This document shows, in pieces, positions 2,521 to 60,350 of a DNA stretch of 64,000 nt (its first letter is position 1; every line of letters begins with the position of its first letter). The notes below the pieces were generated by a model. The model was not told the DNA's origin. It made no database searches and saw only the letters and a list, made by a program, of their open reading frames with translations. Source of the DNA: Somniosus microcephalus (lineage: Eukaryota); assembly GCA_052327205.1 (NCBI GenBank), contig CM126224.1, positions 28,706,001 through 28,770,000 on the forward strand, given 5' to 3'. Both the position numbers and the translations under genes were made by a program.

Positions 2521-3201
2521 AACTAAAATTAGAAATGTTTAAAAACATAGGGAGCCTGAATTTGCAGTCGGAGGCATCCCGTGGGCGAATGCCTCCGAAC
2601 CGTAAGAAAAGTATGAACCTACCTGATGGTCCCGTACCTACGAAGACTCATGCTCCTGGGCCTCCAGGCGTAGGCCTGCGTAGAGGCCCATGGATCCCAG
2701 GGGTACATGCGTTTCGCAAGCGCCCCCGGGACCACGTGGGCCGGCCCAACCAATCAGAAAGGGGGATCCCAATTATGCTCATACGGAATTCCCATAAGCT
2801 TAATAGGAATCACATAAAAAGCACAAATTTCACACAACTCAAATAAAAAGAAATCATTACATAGTCAAAATTAATTAAAATACAATGTAATTAAACATTT
2901 AAAACAAAAAATAATTTGTTGAAAAATCAACGTAAACATTTTTGAAGGGTCCAAAAATAACCTAAGCTAATTTTAAAGGTTTTTTTAAGTTTAAATGATT
3001 AAAAAAAATTTTTTTATTTTAATATTTATTTCAACCCTTACGCTGGTAAAAGAAGGCCCTATGCCTGCTTTTACCGGGCATAAGATTTTTTGGGGCATTC
3101 GCTGGGCAGTAGTCGCGCAAACAGCCCAACTCTCCATCAGCGAATGTCCATTTCCTGGGGATGCGGTGGATCTGTCAAGCTGACACTTGACAGATCGCAA
3201 G

Positions 3202-3458
3202 TGTTAAGTATGTGTATTGTATTGAACAATTAACACAAAGACTTAAACGTATAACTCAAACAGGTCTTTACTGGTTGGAGGTAGGGACTGCACGTAGGTC
3301 TTTACTTCATGCCCACAGGCGGGAACTGAGGGGAGATCAGTACCCACAGTACTATTTATACCCCTATGGCCAGGAGTGGTACTGCGTATCACTACGCCCT
3401 ACAAGTAGTGCAGTCCTGTCCATAGGTTCAAAGTAGCACACATATTACATACACAACA
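3202..3458 (-). repeat. 3' LTR (257 bp)
   Basis: Direct repeat of 6523-6779; the only difference I see is C3402 vs T6723; TGTT...AACA termini. Confidence 0.97.
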
Positions 3459-3471
3459 TTCCTCCCTTCTT
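3459..3471 (-). promoter_or_regulatory. Polypurine tract AAGAAGGGAGGAA
   Basis: 13 purines on the - strand directly abutting the 3' LTR. Confidence 0.9.
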
Positions 3472-3569
3472 AGCTTTACAGTCATCTCCCCATTTAACAT
3501 AACGTAATAACATATATACATATATGACTTCAGGTTTACATAACAGAATAACATAGATAACTTCATGTC

Positions 3570-3766
3570 AAAACAGATCACAGATTCAGTCTCTGCGGAA
3601 AACAGTTCACAGATTCAATCTCTGTGGTGTAGTCGGTTCACGTTGCTGGAGTGACTCATTCAATAGTCCTTCCATGGATTTAACAGTTTGAACTTCCGAA
3701 CTGAATTGGCTCCTTTCGGAGGGACCACGTGTGTGATCTGGTAGAGGTAATAATGGTTCAGATGGG
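3570..3766 (-). pseudogene. Vestigial integrase C-terminal tail of pol (…REPTTPQRLNL*), last 29 bp tandemly duplicated
   Basis: Pro/Ser-rich stretch ending PQRLNL-stop just before the PPT, resembling Mag-type pol ends; out of frame with the main ORF; duplicate units at 3570-3598 and 3599-3627. Confidence 0.6.
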
Positions 3767-5959
3767 TCATCTTCTGTTTCGACTTTTCCTTTTCTGCTTC
3801 TTGGAGACTTTCTGGGCTCCACTGTCAGCTGCCTGCTGCATGCGCAGTTCCTCCTTCTCTTCCTCCTTTTTCCGTAGTAGAGCCACCTTCTCCCGATGTT
3901 CCGTAGACTTTCGGTGCTCCTCCATGATTTCTGTATGGTGGGAGTCGAAGTTACAAGTTGGGCAGGACAGGACATAGTAATATTCGGTGTCGTCCTGATC
4001 TAGGCCAGCGAGAGGGTCTTCTATTTCCTCCATACCCAGCTGGGCGTTAGCCAGCTTTTGTTCCAAGTCCAGACATCTTTCCTGAAGAGACTTCTTCATG
4101 CGTACCTCTTCATCCAGCTTTTTCTGGGCTTTCAGCAAGTCGTTTACTAATGACCTCATTTGAGATTTTACTACTTCAACTTCTTTTGGAGATTGATTGA
4201 TCGGACTATTCAATCCCTCTACTGGAGCAGCTGTTTCAGCGGTCTGTTGTTCTACGTTGACGTGAGTCAGCGTACTTTTGGCATCCAAGGGCTGCTCTGT
4301 TGCAGTCATCTCAGTCTGTGTTGCCACCTCAGCTCTTCCAATAACCTTTGAGAGCTCCGAACCCCTTTCGTTTGAATATTGAAGTTCGTGTTCAAGTTTT
4401 TCCCATTTCAGAGTCCTGTCCTTCAGCATATGCAGGAGTTGGCTGACCGTTAACTCCTCTGACATCAGACGTTTTGTGTGCTCCTGCTCCATTTTCTCCA
4501 TCAGCTGCTTCTGTTGTCTTTCCAGATTCTCCAACTCTATATCAAAGAACTCTTTCGTCGCATTCAACTCTTGCTCAAAACGGCGAAGCATTTGTTCTAA
4601 TTGCTGTTGTAGTTTGAAATGGAGTTGAGTTCGAGCCCGGTGTCCCTCAGAAATGGGCACATCAGTAGACTTGCCAGACTCAGAATCCACAGTTAAACTA
4701 TGTTGTTGTTGCTCAGTGGAATTCTGTGCTGAAACTTTGTCTTTTGCACCTGAGTTGGGCTTACCATCATCCGTTCCAGAGTCTGGGCCGACTATCTTCA
4801 CCGAGTTCTCACTCGTTATTGTTTGTAGGAAATGCCAGTCCATATTCATTTTCCTAATCCACTCCCGTCCTAGTAGTGGAGGACCTCCTTCAGATATCAC
4901 ATATAAGTCCATTATTTGACTGTCTTCGCCCTTGTGGACCACTGCAACCTCTATTTTCCCGATGGGGTACACTCTTTGCCCCGTGTATGTTTTCAATATA
5001 ATCCCCGTATCCTGTAGGGGAATATGTTGGAATAACTTTCCGTAATCTTTCTTATTTATGACCGTCAATGCCGATCCAGTGTCCAATTCCAGTTTTACTT
5101 GGACTCCTTCTATCTGAAGAGTGACCCAAATTGTCTGGAGGTCTGCACCCTTACCAGCGTTGAGTACTCTTAAGCTAGCCAGTTCATTACTGCTAGCGTC
5201 TGAATCGGACTCCTGTTCGGTCACCTTGTGTACCTTTGCGTATTTTCCTTGCGGTGACTTCTTGTTGCTGGTCTTCTTCCCTGACCTGCATACTCTAGCT
5301 ATATGTCCAAGCCTACCACAAGTTCTACATTCTTGGTTTTTAAACCAACACTGGTTCTGATCATGCGTTGTCTTTCCACAACGATAACATTTGCCAGAAC
5401 TCACACCCAATTTGTGTGCACTGAGCTCCGGTGACCGTAGCTGCATTACTGCCGTGCCTCTCGCTGCGGCTTCGTGTGCTGCTGCCATAGTGACCGCCTT
5501 CTCAAGCGTCAGCTCATTCTCCTCGAGCAGTCGCTTTTGTGTATCCTGTTTAAATAAACCACACACAAATTTGTCTCGAAGTGCCTCTGTCAGTCCCGTT
5601 CCAAACTGGCAATATTTCGCTAATTTACGCAATTCCAGCAAATATTCAGCATTGCTTTCATGCTGTAGCTGCCTTCTGTCGTAAAATTTAAATCGTTCCG
5701 CTAGCATCAGCGGCGTGGGGTTTAGATGATCTTTCAGGACAGTAACAATCTCATCGAACGTCTTATCCGCCGGTTCATCTGGTGATAACAGGTGTTTCAA
5801 TTGCCCGTATGTCTTCGCACCCATTAAATTTAATAATGTTAGAGCTTTATCTTGGTCACGAATTTTATTGGCCTTACAATAATTTTTTACTCTTTCAACA
5901 TATATGGCCCAATCTTCGAGGTCACTATCAAAGGTGCTAATATTCCCGTGTTTAGGCAT
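3767..5959 (-). CDS. 730-aa chimeric polyprotein: Gag (2x CCHC) - aspartic protease - linker - STK10/SLK-like coiled coil - OPTN-like coiled coil - DNAJC21-like C2H2 zinc finger and basic tail
   Basis: Uninterrupted ORF. Mag-type Gag N-terminus (DWAIYVERV...[11 protein letters not shown]), knuckles [14 protein letters not shown] and [14 protein letters not shown] (aa191-224), protease LDTGS...LLGREWI (aa292-368). C-terminal half matches remembered host proteins (see findings). Confidence 0.93.
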
Positions 5960-6511
5960 TGTAGATTTGCAATTTCTCAGATTTTATTTTCTTTACTTGT
6001 TATCAAAGATGGCGGCTTCCCGCTCTTGCCGTCGTCCTCCGCCCACAAAATGGCGGTTTTCCCGCGCTTGGCGGTCTTCACCCGTCCCCCGACGCCGTCT
6101 CCCTTCAGCCCCCGAGTGCGGCCCTTATCTTCGCCGCGATCGATAGCCCGCGCTGTGCACCGCGGCTCTCGCACCTTGAGCTTCTGCAGCCGCCGCGCCT
6201 TTCAGTCCGAATGCGGCCCTTATCTTTGGTCCCGATCGCTGGCCCGCGCTGCGCCTCGCACTTGAAGCGGCTCCCGGCCTCTGGCTCACCCGCTCGCGCG
6301 GCTCTTGCTCGCTCCCTCCCGGGCTCTGGCTTACCCACGAGGTTATGGAGGCTTCAGGGTCCTAATGCCTGTCGCTTCCAGTCGCTGGAAGCTGTCAGGA
6401 TTTCTGCTGCCCTTCAGTTTTGAGTGGGGTGTTGAGGATTGAAACCTCTCTTCAACGTCCTGTCTTTGGACGAAGCCGCCGTGGAATAACTGCCGCAGGG
6501 TAAGAACCTGA

Positions 6512-6521
6512 CTCGTCGCCA
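6512..6521 (-). promoter_or_regulatory. Primer-binding site TGGCGACGAG, complementary to the 3' end of tRNA-Ser(GCU)
   Basis: One nt inside the 5' LTR; vertebrate tRNA-Ser(GCT) ends CTCGTCGCCA. Confidence 0.85.
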
Positions 6522-6522
6522 G

Positions 6523-6779
6523 TGTTAAGTATGTGTATTGTATTGAACAATTAACACAAAGACTTAAACGTATAACTCAAACAGGTCTTTACTGGTTGGA
6601 GGTAGGGACTGCACGTAGGTCTTTACTTCATGCCCACAGGCGGGAACTGAGGGGAGATCAGTACCCACAGTACTATTTATACCCCTATGGCCAGGAGTGG
6701 TACTGCGTATCACTACGCCCTATAAGTAGTGCAGTCCTGTCCATAGGTTCAAAGTAGCACACATATTACATACACAACA
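6523..6779 (-). repeat. 5' LTR (257 bp) with TATA box (TATAAATA at 6681-6674) and AGTAAA poly(A)-like signals
   Basis: Direct repeat of 3202-3458; motifs read on the - strand. Confidence 0.97.
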
Positions 6780-7439
6780 GCAAGTTCCAGGTGTTCACGC
6801 GTGCGCATCGCGTGCGGAAATCTGGGACTTGCGGGGCATTTACGGCCAGCATACACGGTGCGCACACGGTCATAGGCCCCGGAAAATCAGGGCCAGGGTG
6901 TGTCCATGTTTGATCCAGAATTTAAAACTCTCTTCAGAGAAACTAATGCAGTAATAGAAAGTATCTCAAAATAAATGTGCAACTTCTTGCAAGGTGCAAA
7001 ATATATAACTTTTTATTTTTTAATTGGTGTATAGTTTATCAATGTGTAATGGTTTAAAGTCAATTAAATTATTGGAAGTATGCCGCCTTGCTTGTTTGAT
7101 CTACAGATGAAAATCACTATGAAATATTCTGTAAACCCTATGTACTCAATTTTTAACGCACCATCTTCAATCAATACTCTTTTGAGGCTAAGCAATTACA
7201 GAAGTTAACCATTAATGAATTGATAGTCTTGTTTCGTTGCCACGTTTGCAGAATTTAATGTCACTATTCAATTTCTTCACACCAGTGCTAATTTGAACTC
7301 AAAACAAGACCTTTGATTTTATCCTCTGAAACCTTTGCAATTAAATGGTGACTTGCTGCTCGTGGACTTCTCCACTATATTTCAGTTATTAGATGACTGA
7401 GAAAAATATTAAATTGGCTATCTTTTCCTCAAAATTAGA

Positions 7440-48577: not shown

Positions 48578-50025
48578 TACATAAGAACATAAGAAATAGG
48601 AGCAGGAGTAGGCCAATCGGCCCCTCAAGCCTGCTCCGCCATTCAATAAGATCATGGCTGATCTGATCCTAACCGCCAATCTACTATCACTGAACCATCT
48701 CCTGAATCTAACAGAATTAGACACACGAAATAGGAGCAGGATCAGGCTACACGGCCCCTGGGCCCGCTCCGCTACCCACAGGGCCATGACCGATCCGAAC
48801 CTAGACTCATGTCCAAATTCCTGCCCGTTCCCCGTAACCCTTTATTCCCTTTACTTCTCGGAAACTGTCTATTTCTGTTTTAAATTTATGTAATGATGTA
48901 GCTTCCACAGCTTTTTGGGGCAGCATATTCCATGGACCTACCACCCTCTGAGTGAAGTAGTTCCTCCTCATCTCAGTTTTGAAAGAGCAGCCCCTTATTC
49001 TAAGACTATGCCCCCTAGTTCTAGTTTCACCCATCATCGGGAACACCCTCCCCGCATCCACCCGATCCAACCCCTTCACAATCTTATATGTTTCAATAAG
49101 ATCGCCTCTCATTCTTCTGAACTCCAATGAGTAGAGTCCCAATCTACTCAACCTCTCCTCATATGTCCACCCCCTCATCCCCGGGATTAACCGAGTGAAC
49201 CTTCTTTGTACTGACTCGAGAGCAAGTATGTCCTTTCTTAAGTATGGACACCAAAACTGTACGCAGTATTCCAGGTGCGGTCTCACCAATACCTTGTACA
49301 ACTGAAGCAATACCTCCCTATTTTTATATTCTATCCCCCTAGCAATGAAAGCCAACATTCCATTGGCCTTCTTAATCACTTGCTGCTGCATACTAACCTT
49401 TTGAGTTTCGTGCACCAGGACCCCCAGATCCCTTTGTACTTCAGTACTTTCCAGTTTCTTGCCATTAAGATAATAACTTGCTCTACGATTTTTCCTGCCA
49501 AAGTGCATAACCTCACACTTTCCAGTATTGTATTCCATCTGCCAAATCTCTGCCCACTTACTTAGCCTGTCGATGTCCCCTTGCAGGTTTTTTATGTCCT
49601 CCTCACTCACTACTTTCCCTCCCATCTTAGTATCATCTGCAAACTTTGATATGTTACACTCGGTCCCCTCCTCCAAATCGTTAATATAGATTGTAAAGAG
49701 TTGGGGACCCAGCACCGACCCCTGCTGAACACCACTAGTTACTGATTGCCAGTCTGAGAATGAACCATTTATCCCAACTCTCTGCTTTGTTAGATAGCCA
49801 ATCCTCTATCCATGCCAGAACATTACCCCCAATCCCGTGATTTTTTATCTTAAGCAATAATCTTTTGTGTGGCACCTTGTCAAATGCCTTTTGGAAGTCT
49901 AAATACACTACGTCCACTGGTTCCCCTTTATCCACCCTATATGTTACTTCCTCAAAGAACTCTAGCAAATTTGTCAAACATGACTTCCCCTTCATAAAAC
50001 CATGCTGACTTTGTCCTATTAAATG
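48578..50025 (-). mobile_element. 5'-truncated young CR1 LINE; RT ORF remnant (302 aa open at 48807-49715)
   Basis: LDFQKAFDKVPH, LGPQLFTIYINDL, KFADDTK, RPHLEYCVQFW motifs; ACATAAGA-type tail. Confidence 0.95.
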
Positions 50026-52764: not shown

Positions 52765-53590
52765 GTAAGTATATATCTCTGGTGATCAGCTTTTCAGTAG
52801 ACTAGACTTAATTACGCAATAGTATACTCTGTAAATTTTGAGACTCCACACAGATTTATTCTCAGTGCTGTGTTTCATGTACCAAGTGCTCTAAGAAGGG
52901 AATTGGGATATTGCAGCTGACAGTTTTTGATGGCTGCACTGTATCTTCAGTTCATCAATCAGATCCCTTTGTGTGTAAAGATAGGTGAATATCCTTAACC
53001 CTTGACTGTTTAATTTTATTATCTTCCTATTCTATAACTTTGTAGCATTTACTGTATATCTACACTAAGTGTGCCAGTAAGAAAAAGTTTACTAACTATT
53101 GTAATGGGTCGTACATTAAGAACAACAGAAACATGTTTTTTTACAAAGAGATTATTTCATAAAATGCTGTAATCTTGTTATTTATTTTTATGTTTATATT
53201 TTCCTCTGGTACCCTTGGGGGTAAAGTGATAAGAATATTTGTTCCTAATAGGTCCTCATGCTTTGAGAACTAAGGACTAATATTTTTGCATAATTTGATC
53301 TATCTGAAGTATTAAAGTAACCAGCTGACTTGGAATAGATTGGGTCAGAAAAAGTTTATTATTTTTATAAATGGATTTGCTTTTATGAACATTTATATTT
53401 AGTGTGATTTTGCATTTATGAATACCTTCCAGCAAACTAAGTGACTGACTTAAAAGCACTTCATTGGTTGTGAAGTGCTTTGGGACATGATAATGCACTG
53501 TATAAAACATGCTATCTTTCCTTCTGTCTTTCCCTTCTTCTTCTTTCCTCTCCCCCCTCTTGTGTTCTCCCTCCTCCCGTCACCCTCTCC

Positions 53591-53950
53591 CTCCTCCCCT
53601 CGCCCCCTTCCCTCCTCCTCCCCTCGCCCCCTTCCCTCCTCCTCCCCTCGCCCCCTTCCCTCCTCCTCCCCTCGCCCCCTTCCCTCCTCCTCCCCTCGCC
53701 CCCTTCCCTCCTCCTCCCCTCGCCCCCTTCCCTCCTCCTCCCCTCGCCCCCTTCCCTCCTCCTCCCCTCGCCCCCTTCCCTCCTCCTCCCCTCGCCCCCT
53801 TCCCTCCTCCTCCCCTCGCCCCCTTCCCTCCTCCTCCCCTCGCCCCCTTCCCTCCTCCTCCCCTCGCCCCCTTCCCTCCTCCTCCCCTCGCCCCCTTCCC
53901 TCCTCCTCCCCTCGCCCCCTTCCCTCCTCCTCCCCTCGCCCCCTTCCCTC
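53591..53950. repeat. Perfect tandem repeat, 15 x 24 bp (CTCCTCCCCTCGCCCCCTTCCCTC), running into a gap
   Basis: Directly visible. Confidence 0.95.
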
Positions 53951-54218
53951 NNNNNNNNNNNNNNNNNNNNNNNNNNNNNNNNNNNNNNNNNNNNNNNNNN
54001 NNNNNNNNNNNNNNNNNNNNNNNNNNNNNNNNNNNNNNNNNNNNNNNNNNNNNNNNNNNNNNNNNNNNNNNNNNNNNNNNNNNNNNNNNNNNNNNNNNNN
54101 NNNNNNNNNNNNNNNNNNNNNNNNNNNNNNNNNNNNNNNNNNNNNNNNNNNNNNNNNNNNNNNNNNNNNNNNNNNNNNNNNNNNNNNNNNNNNNNNNNNN
54201 NNNNNNNNNNNNNNNNNN
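53951..54218. other. Assembly gap (268 N)
   Basis: Run of N. Confidence 1.
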
Positions 54219-54374
54219 TCGCCCCCCCCCCCTCCTCCCGTCACCACCCCCCTCTCCTCCAGTCGCCCCCTCTCCCGTTTTTGCCCCCTGCTCCTTCCGG
54301 TACATTCTCTCTCTCTCCTCACTTATTAATCTCTCTCAGAGCCATTTTTTGTCCTACAGAATATTAAATGAAAG

Positions 54375-58309: not shown

Positions 58310-60350
58310 ATAAGTACATAAGAAGGAGCAGGAATAGGCCACTTGGCCCCTCGAGCCTGCTCCGCCATTCAATAAGATCATGGCTGATCTTGGGCTCAAA
58401 GCCAGTTCTCTGCCCGCTCCCCATAACTCTTCAGTCCCTTATCTTGCAAAAATCTGTCTATATCCACCTTAAATGTATTTAATGACCCAGCCTCCACGGC
58501 TTTTTGGGGCAGAGAATTCCACAGATTTGCGACCCTCATCTCAGTTCTAAAAGGGCGACCCTTTATTCTAAAACTGTGCCCCCGCATTCTAAATTTCCCC
58601 ACGAGGAGAAACATCCTCTCTGCATCTACCTTGTCGAGCCCCCTCAGTATCTTATATGTTTCAATAAGATCACCTCTCATTCTTCTGAATTTCAATGAGT
58701 ATAGGCCCAACCTGCTCAACCTTTCTTCATAAGTCAACTCCCTTATCTCAGGAATCAACCGAGTGAATCGTATCTGAACTGCCTCCAATGCAAGTATATC
58801 CTTCCTTAAATAAGGAGACCAAAACTGTATGCAGTACTCCAGGTGTGGTCTCACCAATACCCTATACAGTTGTAGCAGGACTTCCCTGCTTTTATACTCC
58901 AACCCCCTTGCAATAAAGGCCAACATTCCATTTGCCTTTTTGATTACTTGCTGTACCTGCATGCTAACTTTGTGTTTCATGCACAAGGACCCCCAGGTCC
59001 CTCTGAACTGTAGCATTTTGTAATCTCTCTCCATTTAAATAATTTGCTTTTTTATTTTTCCTGACAAAGTGGATAACCTCGCACTTTCCTACATTATACT
59101 CCATCTGCCAAATGTTTACCCACTCATTAGCCTATCTATATCCCTTTGCAGATTTTTTGAGTCCTCTGCACAACTTGCTTTCCCACCCATCTTTGTATCA
59201 TCTGCAAAATTGGCTACATTACACTCAGTCCCTTCATCCAAGTCATTAATGTAGATTGTAAATAGTTGAGGCTCCAGCACCAATCCCTGTGGCACCCCAC
59301 TAGTTACAGTTTGCCAACCGGAAAATGACCCATTTATCCCGACTCTGCTTTCTGTTAGTTAGCCAATTCTCTATCCATGCTGATATATTTCCCCCAACTC
59401 CGTGAGCTCTTCTCTTATGCAGTAACCTTTTATGTAGCACCTTATTGAATGCCTTCTGGAAATCCAAATACACCACATCCACTGGTTCACCTTTGTCCAC
59501 CCTGCTCGTTACCTCCTCAAAGAACTGCAGCAAGTTTGTTAAACATGATTTCCCTTTCATAAAACCATGCTGACTCTCCTTGACTGCATTATGATTTTCC
59601 AAATGCCTTGCTACTGCTTGCTTAATGAAGGACTCCAGCATTTTCTCAACAACCGATGTTCGGCTAACTGGTCTATAGTTTCCTGCTTTCTGTCTCCCTC
59701 CTTTCTTAAATAGGGGTGTTACATTTGCGGTTTTCCAATCTGCTGGGACCTCTCCAGGGTCCAGGGAATTTTGGTATATTGCAACCAATGCATCCACTAT
59801 CTCTGCAGCCACTTCTTTCAAGACCCTGGGATGCAGGCCATCTGGTCGAGGGGACTTGTCATCTTTTAGTCCCATTGTTTTACCAAGTACTATTTCCTTA
59901 GTGATGGCGATTTGTCTTTAGTTCCCCCCTCCCTGTGGCCCCTTGATTATCCATTATTGGGATGTTGTTAGTGTCTTCTACCGTGAAGACAGATACAAAA
60001 TATTTGTTCAGAGTCTCTGCTATTTCTCCGTCCCCTATTATTAATTCCCCATTCTCATCCTCTAAGGGACCAACATTTACTTTAGCTACTCTCTTCCTTT
60101 TCATATACCTGTAGAAGCTCTTACTTTCTGTTTTAATATTTCTTGCCAGTTTACTCTTATAATTCATCTCTTTTTAGTCATCCTTTGCTGGTTTTTAAAA
60201 ATTTCCCAATCCTCTGACCTCCCACCAATCTTGGCAACATTGTATGCCTTTGTTTTCAATTTGATACCATCCTTTACTTCCTTAGTTAGCCACGGATAGT
60301 GCTCCCTTCTCTTAAAATTTTTCTTTCTCACTAGAATATATTTTTGTTGA
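58310..60350 (-). mobile_element. 5'-truncated CR1 LINE with frameshifted ORF2
   Basis: ORF pieces 60164-60358, 59898-60167, 59300-59875 and 58396-59034 with CR1 RT motifs; CR1 3' tail at ~58310-58395. Confidence 0.95.

Follow-up and report, generated by a model that had tools for sequence, protein, structure and literature searches.

A non-autonomous Gypsy element of Somniosus microcephalus with pol replaced by spliced host sequence, most likely beginning with an STK10 circular RNA

The window analysed here, the whole 64,000-nt stretch of contig CM126224.1 from Somniosus microcephalus, contains an LTR element whose single ORF continues beyond Gag and protease into sequence resembling several host genes. 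This raises the question of what has taken the place of pol, how it was acquired and whether the element makes use of it.

Boundaries, domains and relatives of the element

A reading based on the sequence alone had described an intact element with LTRs, target-site duplication, primer-binding site and polypurine tract around one ORF of 730 aa, and all of these boundaries were re-found (Table 1). The two LTRs have TG..CA ends and differ by 1 mismatch, the primer-binding site starts with TGG one base past the 5' LTR, and the ORF (5959-3767, minus strand) is organised as Gag-protease-cargo. The absence of reverse transcriptase (RT), RNase H and integrase was confirmed by a Pfam search of the ORF, in which none of the three domains was found; PKK scored above the cut-off, and the zinc knuckle and aspartyl protease were seen as weak matches below it. 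The window element is a young non-autonomous Ty3/Gypsy LTR retrotransposon. Matching 5-bp duplications of their own flank 19 of the 20 fetched loci, which are independent insertions and point to secondary retroposition, and the arrangement is therefore not an assembly artefact; two of the 20 (L006 and L008) are apparently one insertion present twice.

Table 1. Features of the element in window coordinates, listed from its 5' to its 3' end.
Feature	Position	Strand	Basis
Target-site duplication GCAAG (right), 5 bp	6780..6784	.	
5' LTR, 257 nt	6523..6779	-	LTR comparison
Primer-binding-site-like motif, common to autonomous relatives	6512..6521	-	
Gag, aa1-230, two zinc knuckles, omega 0.22	5270..5959	-	Pfam, codon analysis
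Aspartyl protease (aa279-380) with intact catalytic D293-T-G; omega 0.28 across subfamilies	4820..5125	-	
STK10 exon 9 in two pieces with an in-frame deletion between them (aa383-438); host identity 86-88%	4644..4814	-	
Parts of STK10 exons 11 and 12 encoding the PKK coiled coil (aa438-498); host identity 91-94%	4467..4648	-	
Spliced OPTN segment of four exons without the three introns (aa496-645); host identity 81-92%; 21 nt deleted internally, frame kept	4023..4474	-	
Short remnant of STK10 exon 8, flanked by OPTN and the zinc-finger piece	4017..4034	-	
DNAJC21-type piece: C2H2 finger aa664-688, acidic helix, Lys/Arg-rich ORF end	3767..4018	-	
End of STK10 exon 8 and start of exon 9, downstream of the stop and out of frame; the permuted lap's second half	3655..3780	-	
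Remnant of integrase C-terminal tail, out of frame in the window copy	3607..3654	-	
Polypurine tract, adjoining 3' LTR	3459..3471	-	
3' LTR, 257 nt	3202..3458	-	LTR comparison
Target-site duplication GCAAG (left), 5 bp	3197..3201	.	

Autonomous relatives are present in the same genome, with 10,877 matches to a protease-RT junction pattern, and Pfam recognised RT, RNase H and integrase in one of them (L177), the parent domain order being protease-RT-RNase H-integrase. The autonomous parent has a Mag-like look. The 5' part of L023, a copy of the founding type, has 97.8% identity to two autonomous parents (L170 and L171). The Gag-protease half of the window element resembles a different autonomous subfamily more than it does the founding one: its Gag is 93% identical to that of L201, the closest autonomous copy sampled, and Gag and protease are 93-94% identical to L201 versus 79-83% to the founding backbone.

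A first look at the genome gave ~15,800 finger-bearing candidate relatives, and the superfamily numbers roughly ten thousand candidate copies. The family is transcribed, as seen at family level from 10,425 and 10,529 reads assigned to it in two RNA runs; run X23 was strongly sense-biased and run X24 weakly stranded, the latter counting against the explanation that we favour below. A sequence-index search listed runs under four organism labels that contain 46-83% of the words searched, with no RNA run listed as a match.

Host sources of the cargo

The coiled coil at aa438-498 had been assigned to STK10 or SLK. The STK10 assignment stood, with up to 81% identity to the shark STK10 protein, whereas SLK was ruled out as donor by best hits and exon identity favouring STK10; the STK10 part also starts at aa383 rather than 438, and its pieces are separated by two in-frame deletions. 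Host STK10 is split by introns, which are precisely missing from the cargo. In L023 the cargo is 98-99% identical to the host STK10 exons but permuted relative to the host, in the order 9(part)-10-11-12-8-9(part), and in simpler relatives the exon 12 donor is joined exactly, base for base, to the exon 8 acceptor. This joint was found in 18 distinct fetched loci; in the window copy OPTN replaces it, and the permuted STK10 order is still there. Exons 8-12 add up to 1,245 nt, which is divisible by three, and are stop-free. Entry and exit of the lap lie at one site of host STK10, as expected for exactly one lap of a circle, and this site shares 12 nt and 7/8 nt with the two ends of the parent pol.

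From these joints, a back-spliced STK10 circular RNA, copied through one full lap of 1,245 nt, is a more likely source of the founding cargo than a linear mRNA, and the most likely one. For a linear source, the exons would have had to be duplicated in tandem or trans-spliced, or template switching would have had to occur twice by chance on the mRNA. Other origins of non-colinear joints are warned of by Dong et al. 2016 (PMC4897178), and the circle is deduced here from DNA joints rather than seen as host RNA; a linear source nevertheless seems quite improbable, given that each host exon occurs once across 200 kb of the host locus with no tandem duplication, that the joint uses donor and acceptor to the base and that entry and exit coincide. 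Entry of a circle into an already deleted element is unsupported, since no element with an empty protease-to-tail deletion was found in the genome at the one junction searched. A literature search found no paper on circSTK10. Element copies match host STK10 at the exon 12-8 joint, so that RNA reads there cannot be assigned to the host.

The proposal that aa500-640 derive from central optineurin proved correct, the match covering the slightly longer stretch of four host exons given in Table 1. Host OPTN is intron-split, the captured part is up to 72% identical to the shark OPTN protein, and its joints show microhomology of 9 and 8 nt.

The third piece had been read as the zinc finger and Lys-rich segment of DNAJC21. 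In the host genome, aa646-730 match two exons of an intron-containing locus present in single copy, with 81% and 89% identity, and this locus encodes a JAZ-type finger, a Lys-rich exon and a second finger downstream. A protein search with aa646-730 gave no hit at E<=10, likewise with the tail of a sister copy, and PDB sequence searches with the zinc-finger region gave weak or generic zinc-finger hits only. A first Atlas search gave leads under 0.9, and a further Atlas lead pointed to clusters with PF12171, some also with PF21884. Upstream exons of the donor locus were not found beyond a 500-N stretch, patterns for the N-terminal and upstream exon came back empty, and the host exon at the entry of the zinc-finger piece was not found. 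By name the donor is presumably DNAJC21, which as donor gene is supported, not proven, by the exon matches. The PF21884 locus of the genome was also considered and is not the donor; it reads like what we take to be DNAJC2. An intermediate form of the finger is present in L188.

OPTN and the zinc-finger piece were added after STK10, by serial insertion, and intermediate cargo stages are still found in the genome alongside the autonomous parents. In the history of the window lineage, 10 of 11 junctions are in frame. The idea of serial capture of co-packaged mRNAs by template switching thus fits the spliced RNA, the microhomology at most junctions and the intermediates, except that the founding cargo is likely circular rather than linear mRNA. 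Similarly, all pieces had been called sense, intron-free and in native frame; the introns are indeed absent and the pieces within the ORF are in frame, but the STK10 exon 8-9 piece after the stop is not.

Selection on the cargo and its possible role

In the codon analysis, Gag and protease gave the low omega values listed in Table 1, and the cargo ranged over 0.67-1.27. STK10 showed mild constraint (omega 0.67, p=0.006) and OPTN did not differ from 1 (omega 0.74, p=0.15), apart from a window at aa564-588 (omega 0.26, p=0.004). Observed amino-acid changes in the coiled coils were close to expectation with stops excluded (68 vs 70, 84 vs 88 and 49 vs 53), and a plain NG86 ratio of 0.53 against the host overstates constraint, most of which was taken away by a spectrum-preserving test. 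Since both coiled-coil values are near neutral, their exact sequence matters little. Conversely, among 13 cargo windows the zinc finger alone exceeded 1 significantly, with omega of 5.0 (p=0.004) or 11.6 (p=0.0006) in a window picked after the data were seen. It carries 32 amino-acid-changing steps in 25 codons vs ~15 expected (p=1.6e-4), and its 8 invariant sites include all four ligands (p=0.006). A simple count test gave p=0.04-0.12, and with all 21 haplotypes the significance was gone (p=0.29 and 0.41), many single-copy haplotypes coming from protein-identity searches, which admit only silent variants. Codon comparisons of the finger thus show signs of rapid adaptive change, and part of the cargo likely works for the element now. 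Within the cargo, a strong protein-level signal is confined to the finger (omega ~5-12).

That selection keeps the frame open, as had been suggested, agrees with tests on stop codons. The 104 sites at which the window lineage differs from the host exons include no stop (chance 0.025), and the corresponding chances in two other lineages are 0.002 and 0.019. The ORF is intact in 28 and broken in 7 of 35 further copies, which were top-scoring hits and therefore biased to young copies (99% identical), and no stop is common to copies. Basic C-terminal ends, with 9-12 Lys/Arg in the last 20 residues, occur in 11 of 16 ORFs vs 6 such residues in two founding-type copies; these tails arose twice, by two routes. 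Single-sequence AlphaFold models of the product gave three long helices, one spanning the STK10-OPTN joint, and no confident finger.

On balance, we favour a non-autonomous Gypsy in which Pol has been replaced by spliced host RNA, the STK10 circle first, and in which the Gag-protease-cargo protein is likely a stand-in for Pol. RT would have switched at microhomology to a co-packaged STK10 circle, gone round it once and switched back on running out of template; OPTN and the zinc-finger piece would have been inserted later at microhomologies, with in-frame deletions trimming the cargo. Autonomous helpers would supply RT and integrase in mixed particles. The selection patterns suggest that an open frame is maintained to let translation run through to the C-terminal finger and basic tail, a module that would take over the nuclear-import or nucleic-acid-binding role of the integrase tail, and that the coiled coils downstream of the protease would act in spacing or oligomerisation while tolerating changes of sequence. 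In HIV-1 a leucine zipper behind the protease raises Gag cleavage (PMC3291649), an analogy that may be counted in favour of the stand-in model. Besides the near-neutral coiled coils, the finger result with all 21 haplotypes and the frame bias of microhomology given below, two further observations count against it: no constraint was detected in the protease against one close helper (19 vs 20.3), and in a sister subfamily (L121) ~17 OPTN codons are read in a shifted frame before the frame returns. A more far-reaching version, that the Gypsy lineage assembled a novel accessory protein out of host fragments, with an in-frame circRNA scaffold, swapped coiled coils and an arms-race finger of fixed fold and changing surface, and thereby reached, as a parasite of the autonomous element, a copy number similar to that of its helper, is put forward tentatively.

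Alternatively, the cargo could be stop-free filler that matters at the RNA level, translation to near the 3' LTR avoiding long-3'-UTR decay or coupling to packaging, with the protein irrelevant. The near-neutral coiled coils and the compensated frameshift would fit, as would the exchange of donors between subfamilies, with ORFs ranging from ~990 to 730 aa, and the several routes by which frame is restored behind the finger. However, invariant zinc ligands with a fast-changing surface and two independent gains of basic tails are not predicted, and an empty protease-to-tail deletion, absent at the one junction searched, would do the same; we consider this explanation unlikely. It is improbable that the cargo is a host decoy, released OPTN and STK10 coiled coils binding host partners and blunting autophagy or innate signalling against the particle. 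Native frames and the mild constraint in STK10 and at OPTN aa564-588 are in its favour, but the captured OPTN stretch is without the N-terminal NEMO-family and C-terminal domains, its first ~90 captured residues are lost in the window subfamily, and the cargo is not the same among successful subfamilies. Microhomology between coiled-coil genes carries a frame bias of 0.45 at 4 nt and ~0.8 at 8-9 nt, which favours coiled-coil donors even without selection; together with copy youth and the stops that do occur in single copies, this could keep frames open in a neutral passenger, a reading that is disfavoured and has very little probability in view of the stop-free differences from the host, of short-homology deletions (bias 0.45 or less) that are in frame too and of the lack of any shared stop. 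Host domestication, with a single fixed locus, decayed LTRs and strong purifying selection, is ruled out by the many young copies, the near-identical LTRs and the omega range of the cargo.

Relation to known captures

Multi-gene LTR capture and circRNA pseudogenes have each been published already, separately. Tan et al. 2016 (PMC5131818) described LTR-mediated retroposition in animals, including a mouse locus combining four genes and one repeat. As here, template switches at microhomology put host RNA in place of part of the internal ORF, in sense and often in frame, several genes can be combined, and further rounds occur as non-autonomous elements; in the relevant passages copies are few and no circular RNA is mentioned. 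The window element likewise has intron-less host sequence between LTRs, microsimilarity at the switches and secondary retroposition. The shark family differs from those cases in that its cargo is fused to a Gag-protease that looks functional, in the ~ten thousand candidate copies of its superfamily, in its surviving intermediates and in one domain apparently under positive selection. The claim that no vertebrate Gypsy with multi-gene cargo had been described therefore needs narrowing: the mouse retrocopy is in print (PMC5131818), but it does not represent a Gag-fused Gypsy family of high copy number. Our literature search found no description of the shark family. In maize Bs1 an LTR element also carries three host-gene pieces forming a chimeric ORF, but in a plant, at one to five copies per genome and with no circular-RNA source mentioned in the passages concerned (PMC5131818, PMC13317346).

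Dong et al. 2016 (PMC4897178) reported 33 copies of circRFWD2 in mouse, with LTRs enriched at their flanks; in these copies a non-colinear back-splice joint is fixed in the genome, as in the present family; the mechanism was left open in the passages concerned and the copies were called pseudogenes. The relatives studied here have an exact donor-acceptor non-colinear joint and no genomic exon tandem within 200 kb, and in the shark, unlike in the mouse, one can see the parent element, the two switch points and the complete lap, which is in frame with Gag-protease. Because these are kept in one genome, the template-switch model is directly checkable, and the family bears on the mechanism of circRNA retroposition.

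Acutely transforming retroviruses have defective genomes in which Gag is fused in frame to host sequence, and they need a helper. The shark element shares these features but has no env, is a germ-line Gypsy and carries structural coiled-coil fragments, not an active oncogene. It offers exon shuffling caught in progress inside a mobile element, with the intermediates kept, and a captured vertebrate domain on which positive selection appears to act in the element and not in the host.

A shark genome preprint (10.1101/2024.09.09.611499) reports intron-less, single-exon OPTN copies flanked by LINEs or LTRs, which it treats as host retrogenes, its main text, in the part concerned, containing no STK10, DNAJC21 or circular RNA. 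Duplicate lists of this sort would be inflated by OPTN-cargo copies of the present kind. Annotation of shark genomes will label thousands of these ORFs as duplicates of OPTN, STK10 or DNAJC21, which may distort claims of gene expansion.

Structure, copies and expression of the element

All parts of the element as first described are present: in addition to the LTRs and the single ORF, it has a GCAAG target duplication, a primer-binding site and a purine tract. Pfam detected knuckle, protease and PKK signals in the ORF and none for RT, RNase H or integrase, in agreement with the sequence-only reading of a Gag-protease ORF lacking these domains.

Coordinates of the element and of other features in the window
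Feature	Position	Strand	Remarks
LTRs, 257 nt each	6523-6779 and 3202-3458	minus	one difference
Single ORF, 730 aa	5959-3767	minus	
GC-rich repetitive leader	5980-6340		variable among copies; source of most short joints in RNA reads
LINE-type fragments	48807-49805, 58396-59034, 59300-59917	minus	presumably CR1/L2-type LINE reverse transcriptase, by look
Tandem repeat	53450-54370		~24 nt unit, purine/pyrimidine-skewed, around run of N

When the 6.45-Gb genome (G000) was searched at the DNA level with the element, 29 loci matched end to end at 98-100% identity (36 scored among 3,123 candidates). The 730-aa ORF was found in 17 of 20 fetched loci and 19 had their own matching 5-bp duplication, with 0-4 differing sites between the two LTRs within a copy. 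After 16 further loci were added, the ORF was intact in 28 of 35 copies besides that of the window, a share that is biased upward because these are the best-scoring matches, and stops were never common to different copies. RNA reads from two runs covered all 30 bins of the element (10,425 out of 16.7 million in one run, 10,529 out of 14.4 million in the other), and over the cargo they were strongly sense in run X23 and weakly so in X24; the signal is at the family level and the runs need not come from one animal.

Host donors and the founding STK10 capture

The cargo matched two shark proteins best, optineurin at up to 72% and STK10 at up to 81%; in the host genome, STK10 maps to C8 and OPTN to C17. 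The window cargo is 81-94% identical to their exons, with introns absent to the base. Both genes of the proposed STK10/SLK and OPTN cargo were thereby recovered as best matches, but the STK10 part starts at aa383 and not at aa438, and two in-frame deletions interrupt it. In host STK10 (L057) the intron behind exon 10 opens with GC, not GT. Compared with the element copies and with the proteins of other sharks, host OPTN at L073 (G000:C17 about 85,884,780-85,885,365) has one additional base at each of two places near an exon border, which may be an assembly error or a broken allele.

Protein searches gave no match for the third cargo piece, with either the window tail or the tail of a sister copy. 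Less diverged sister copies contain a clear JAZ-type finger, and a splice-acceptor pattern led to a single intron-flanked locus on C1. The first of its two matching exons shares 98% identity with these copies; against the window, the two exons reach 81% and 89%. Further downstream the locus has a second exon with a finger, while a search for exons upstream of it, past a stretch of 500 N, found none. Atlas leads were clusters with PF12171, some additionally with PF21884. The donor is presumably DNAJC21, as had been suggested from sequence; the findings are consistent with this name but do not prove it. Exons with PF21884 at L021 and L022 (G000:C17 about 58.36 Mb) belong to a gene that presumably is DNAJC2, and it was rejected as the finger donor.

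A search with an STK10 stretch missing from the window gave 95 matches among 129 candidates, and about 80 of these matches lack introns. These relatives, the founding type, are Gag-protease-STK10-integrase-tail ORFs, with cargo 98-99% identical to host STK10 exons in the order 9(part), 10, 11, 12, 8, 9(part). The exon 12-to-8 joint, found at 18 distinct fetched loci, makes exact use of splice donor and acceptor; across 200 kb of the host locus there is a single copy of each exon, and exons 8-12 total 1,245 nt and read in repeated laps without a stop. Autonomous parents, in which RT, RNase H and integrase were seen, gave 10,877 pattern matches in the genome; for two of them, identity to the founding type is 97.8%. 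The microhomologies between parents and host STK10, 12 nt at the protease end and 7/8 nt at the integrase tail, fall on one and the same host site, and therefore the founding cargo is one lap. Reverse transcriptase would have jumped to a co-packaged STK10 circle, copied one round and jumped back. An empty deletion element predating the capture was not found at the one junction searched. CircRNA pseudogenes flanked by LTRs, which the STK10-lap elements resemble, have been described with the mechanism left open (PMC4897178, in part).

Later captures and sister subfamilies

OPTN takes the place of the back-splice region in one set of relatives, with 9- and 8-nt microhomologies (4,812 first-look candidates), the finger is inserted in exon 8 without OPTN in L097 and L110, and further relatives carry OPTN plus finger. 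Since finger-only, OPTN-only and combined relatives all exist, OPTN and the finger were probably captured on separate occasions and then brought together by recombination. First-look counts for the finger tail, 15,808 and 21,271, are candidates and not copy numbers. The window type shows additional in-frame sequence loss and ends in a Lys/Arg-rich stretch; behind its stop it retains the STK10 lap's second half together with the integrase tail. In Gag and protease it shares 93-94% identity with another autonomous copy but only 79-83% with the founding backbone, so that the cargo cassette must have changed backbone. Serial capture of mRNAs by template switching, as initially proposed, agrees with the absent introns, the microhomologies and the intermediates, although the founding template appears to have been circular.

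Sister subfamilies carry further coiled coils (Myosin_tail_1 by Pfam). In L091-L100, L146, L147 and L156 such a coil, presumably cingulin-like, lies inside the STK10 lap ahead of the back-splice joint, together with the finger. A very abundant subfamily (L048:1900-6800, L121-L135, L151) has an extra coiled coil, which we take to be RAI14/UACA-like, and a compensated frameshift within OPTN, and L048 additionally has a ~30-codon tandem repeat. L188 is an apparent recombinant: its first half resembles the window type, and its second half comes from an older sister whose zinc finger is intermediate.

Literature searches found no description of this STK10/OPTN/finger Gypsy family. Multi-gene capture by LTR elements, as in the present family, has been described; examples are a mouse locus with four genes and maize Bs1 (PMC5131818, PMC13317346, both in part). 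The main text of a shark genome preprint (10.1101/2024.09.09.611499) reports intron-less OPTN copies near repeats, taken as retrogenes.

Selection on the cargo and its proposed role

Codon models with 10-12 representatives gave omega values of 0.22 for Gag, 0.28 for protease, 0.67 for STK10 (p=0.006), 0.74 for OPTN (p=0.15) and 1.27 for the whole finger piece (p=0.26). In a permutation test that kept the mutation spectrum and forbade stops, amino-acid changes were far under the neutral level in Gag (29 vs 52) and at that level in the cargo (68 vs 70, 84 vs 88, 49 vs 53). The cargo frame is kept open beyond chance: for three lineages that are partly related to one another, p(no stop) is 0.025, 0.002 and 0.019. 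By our own count 10 of 11 junctions are in frame, although microhomology by itself would give an in-frame junction in 45-80% of cases.

The main rival explanation is that the cargo is stop-free filler needed at the RNA level, with which the near-neutral coiled coils would agree. The finger (aa664-688) points instead to the protein: it is the sole segment of 13 significantly above omega 1 (5-12, p=0.0006-0.008 by alignment and model), albeit picked post hoc, its amino-acid change is twice that of the remaining cargo with silent change not higher, its zinc ligands are invariant (4/4, p=0.006) and the intermediate finger is preserved. A count test gave p=0.04-0.12, and significance is gone with all 21 haplotypes, whose single-copy members were retrieved by a search route that favours silent variants. 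The earlier proposal of selection to keep the fusion translated is supported; the coiled coils evolve close to neutrally, and a strong signal at the protein level is limited to the finger.

The findings are best explained by a non-autonomous element with one predicted protein, which would co-assemble with helper Gag-Pol. The change-tolerant coiled coils may act as a spacer or oligomeriser behind the protease; in HIV-1, a zipper in this position raises processing (PMC3291649, in part). Two routes led to basic C-termini. The finger and basic tail could do a protein-level job, for instance in entry into the nucleus or in binding nucleic acids.
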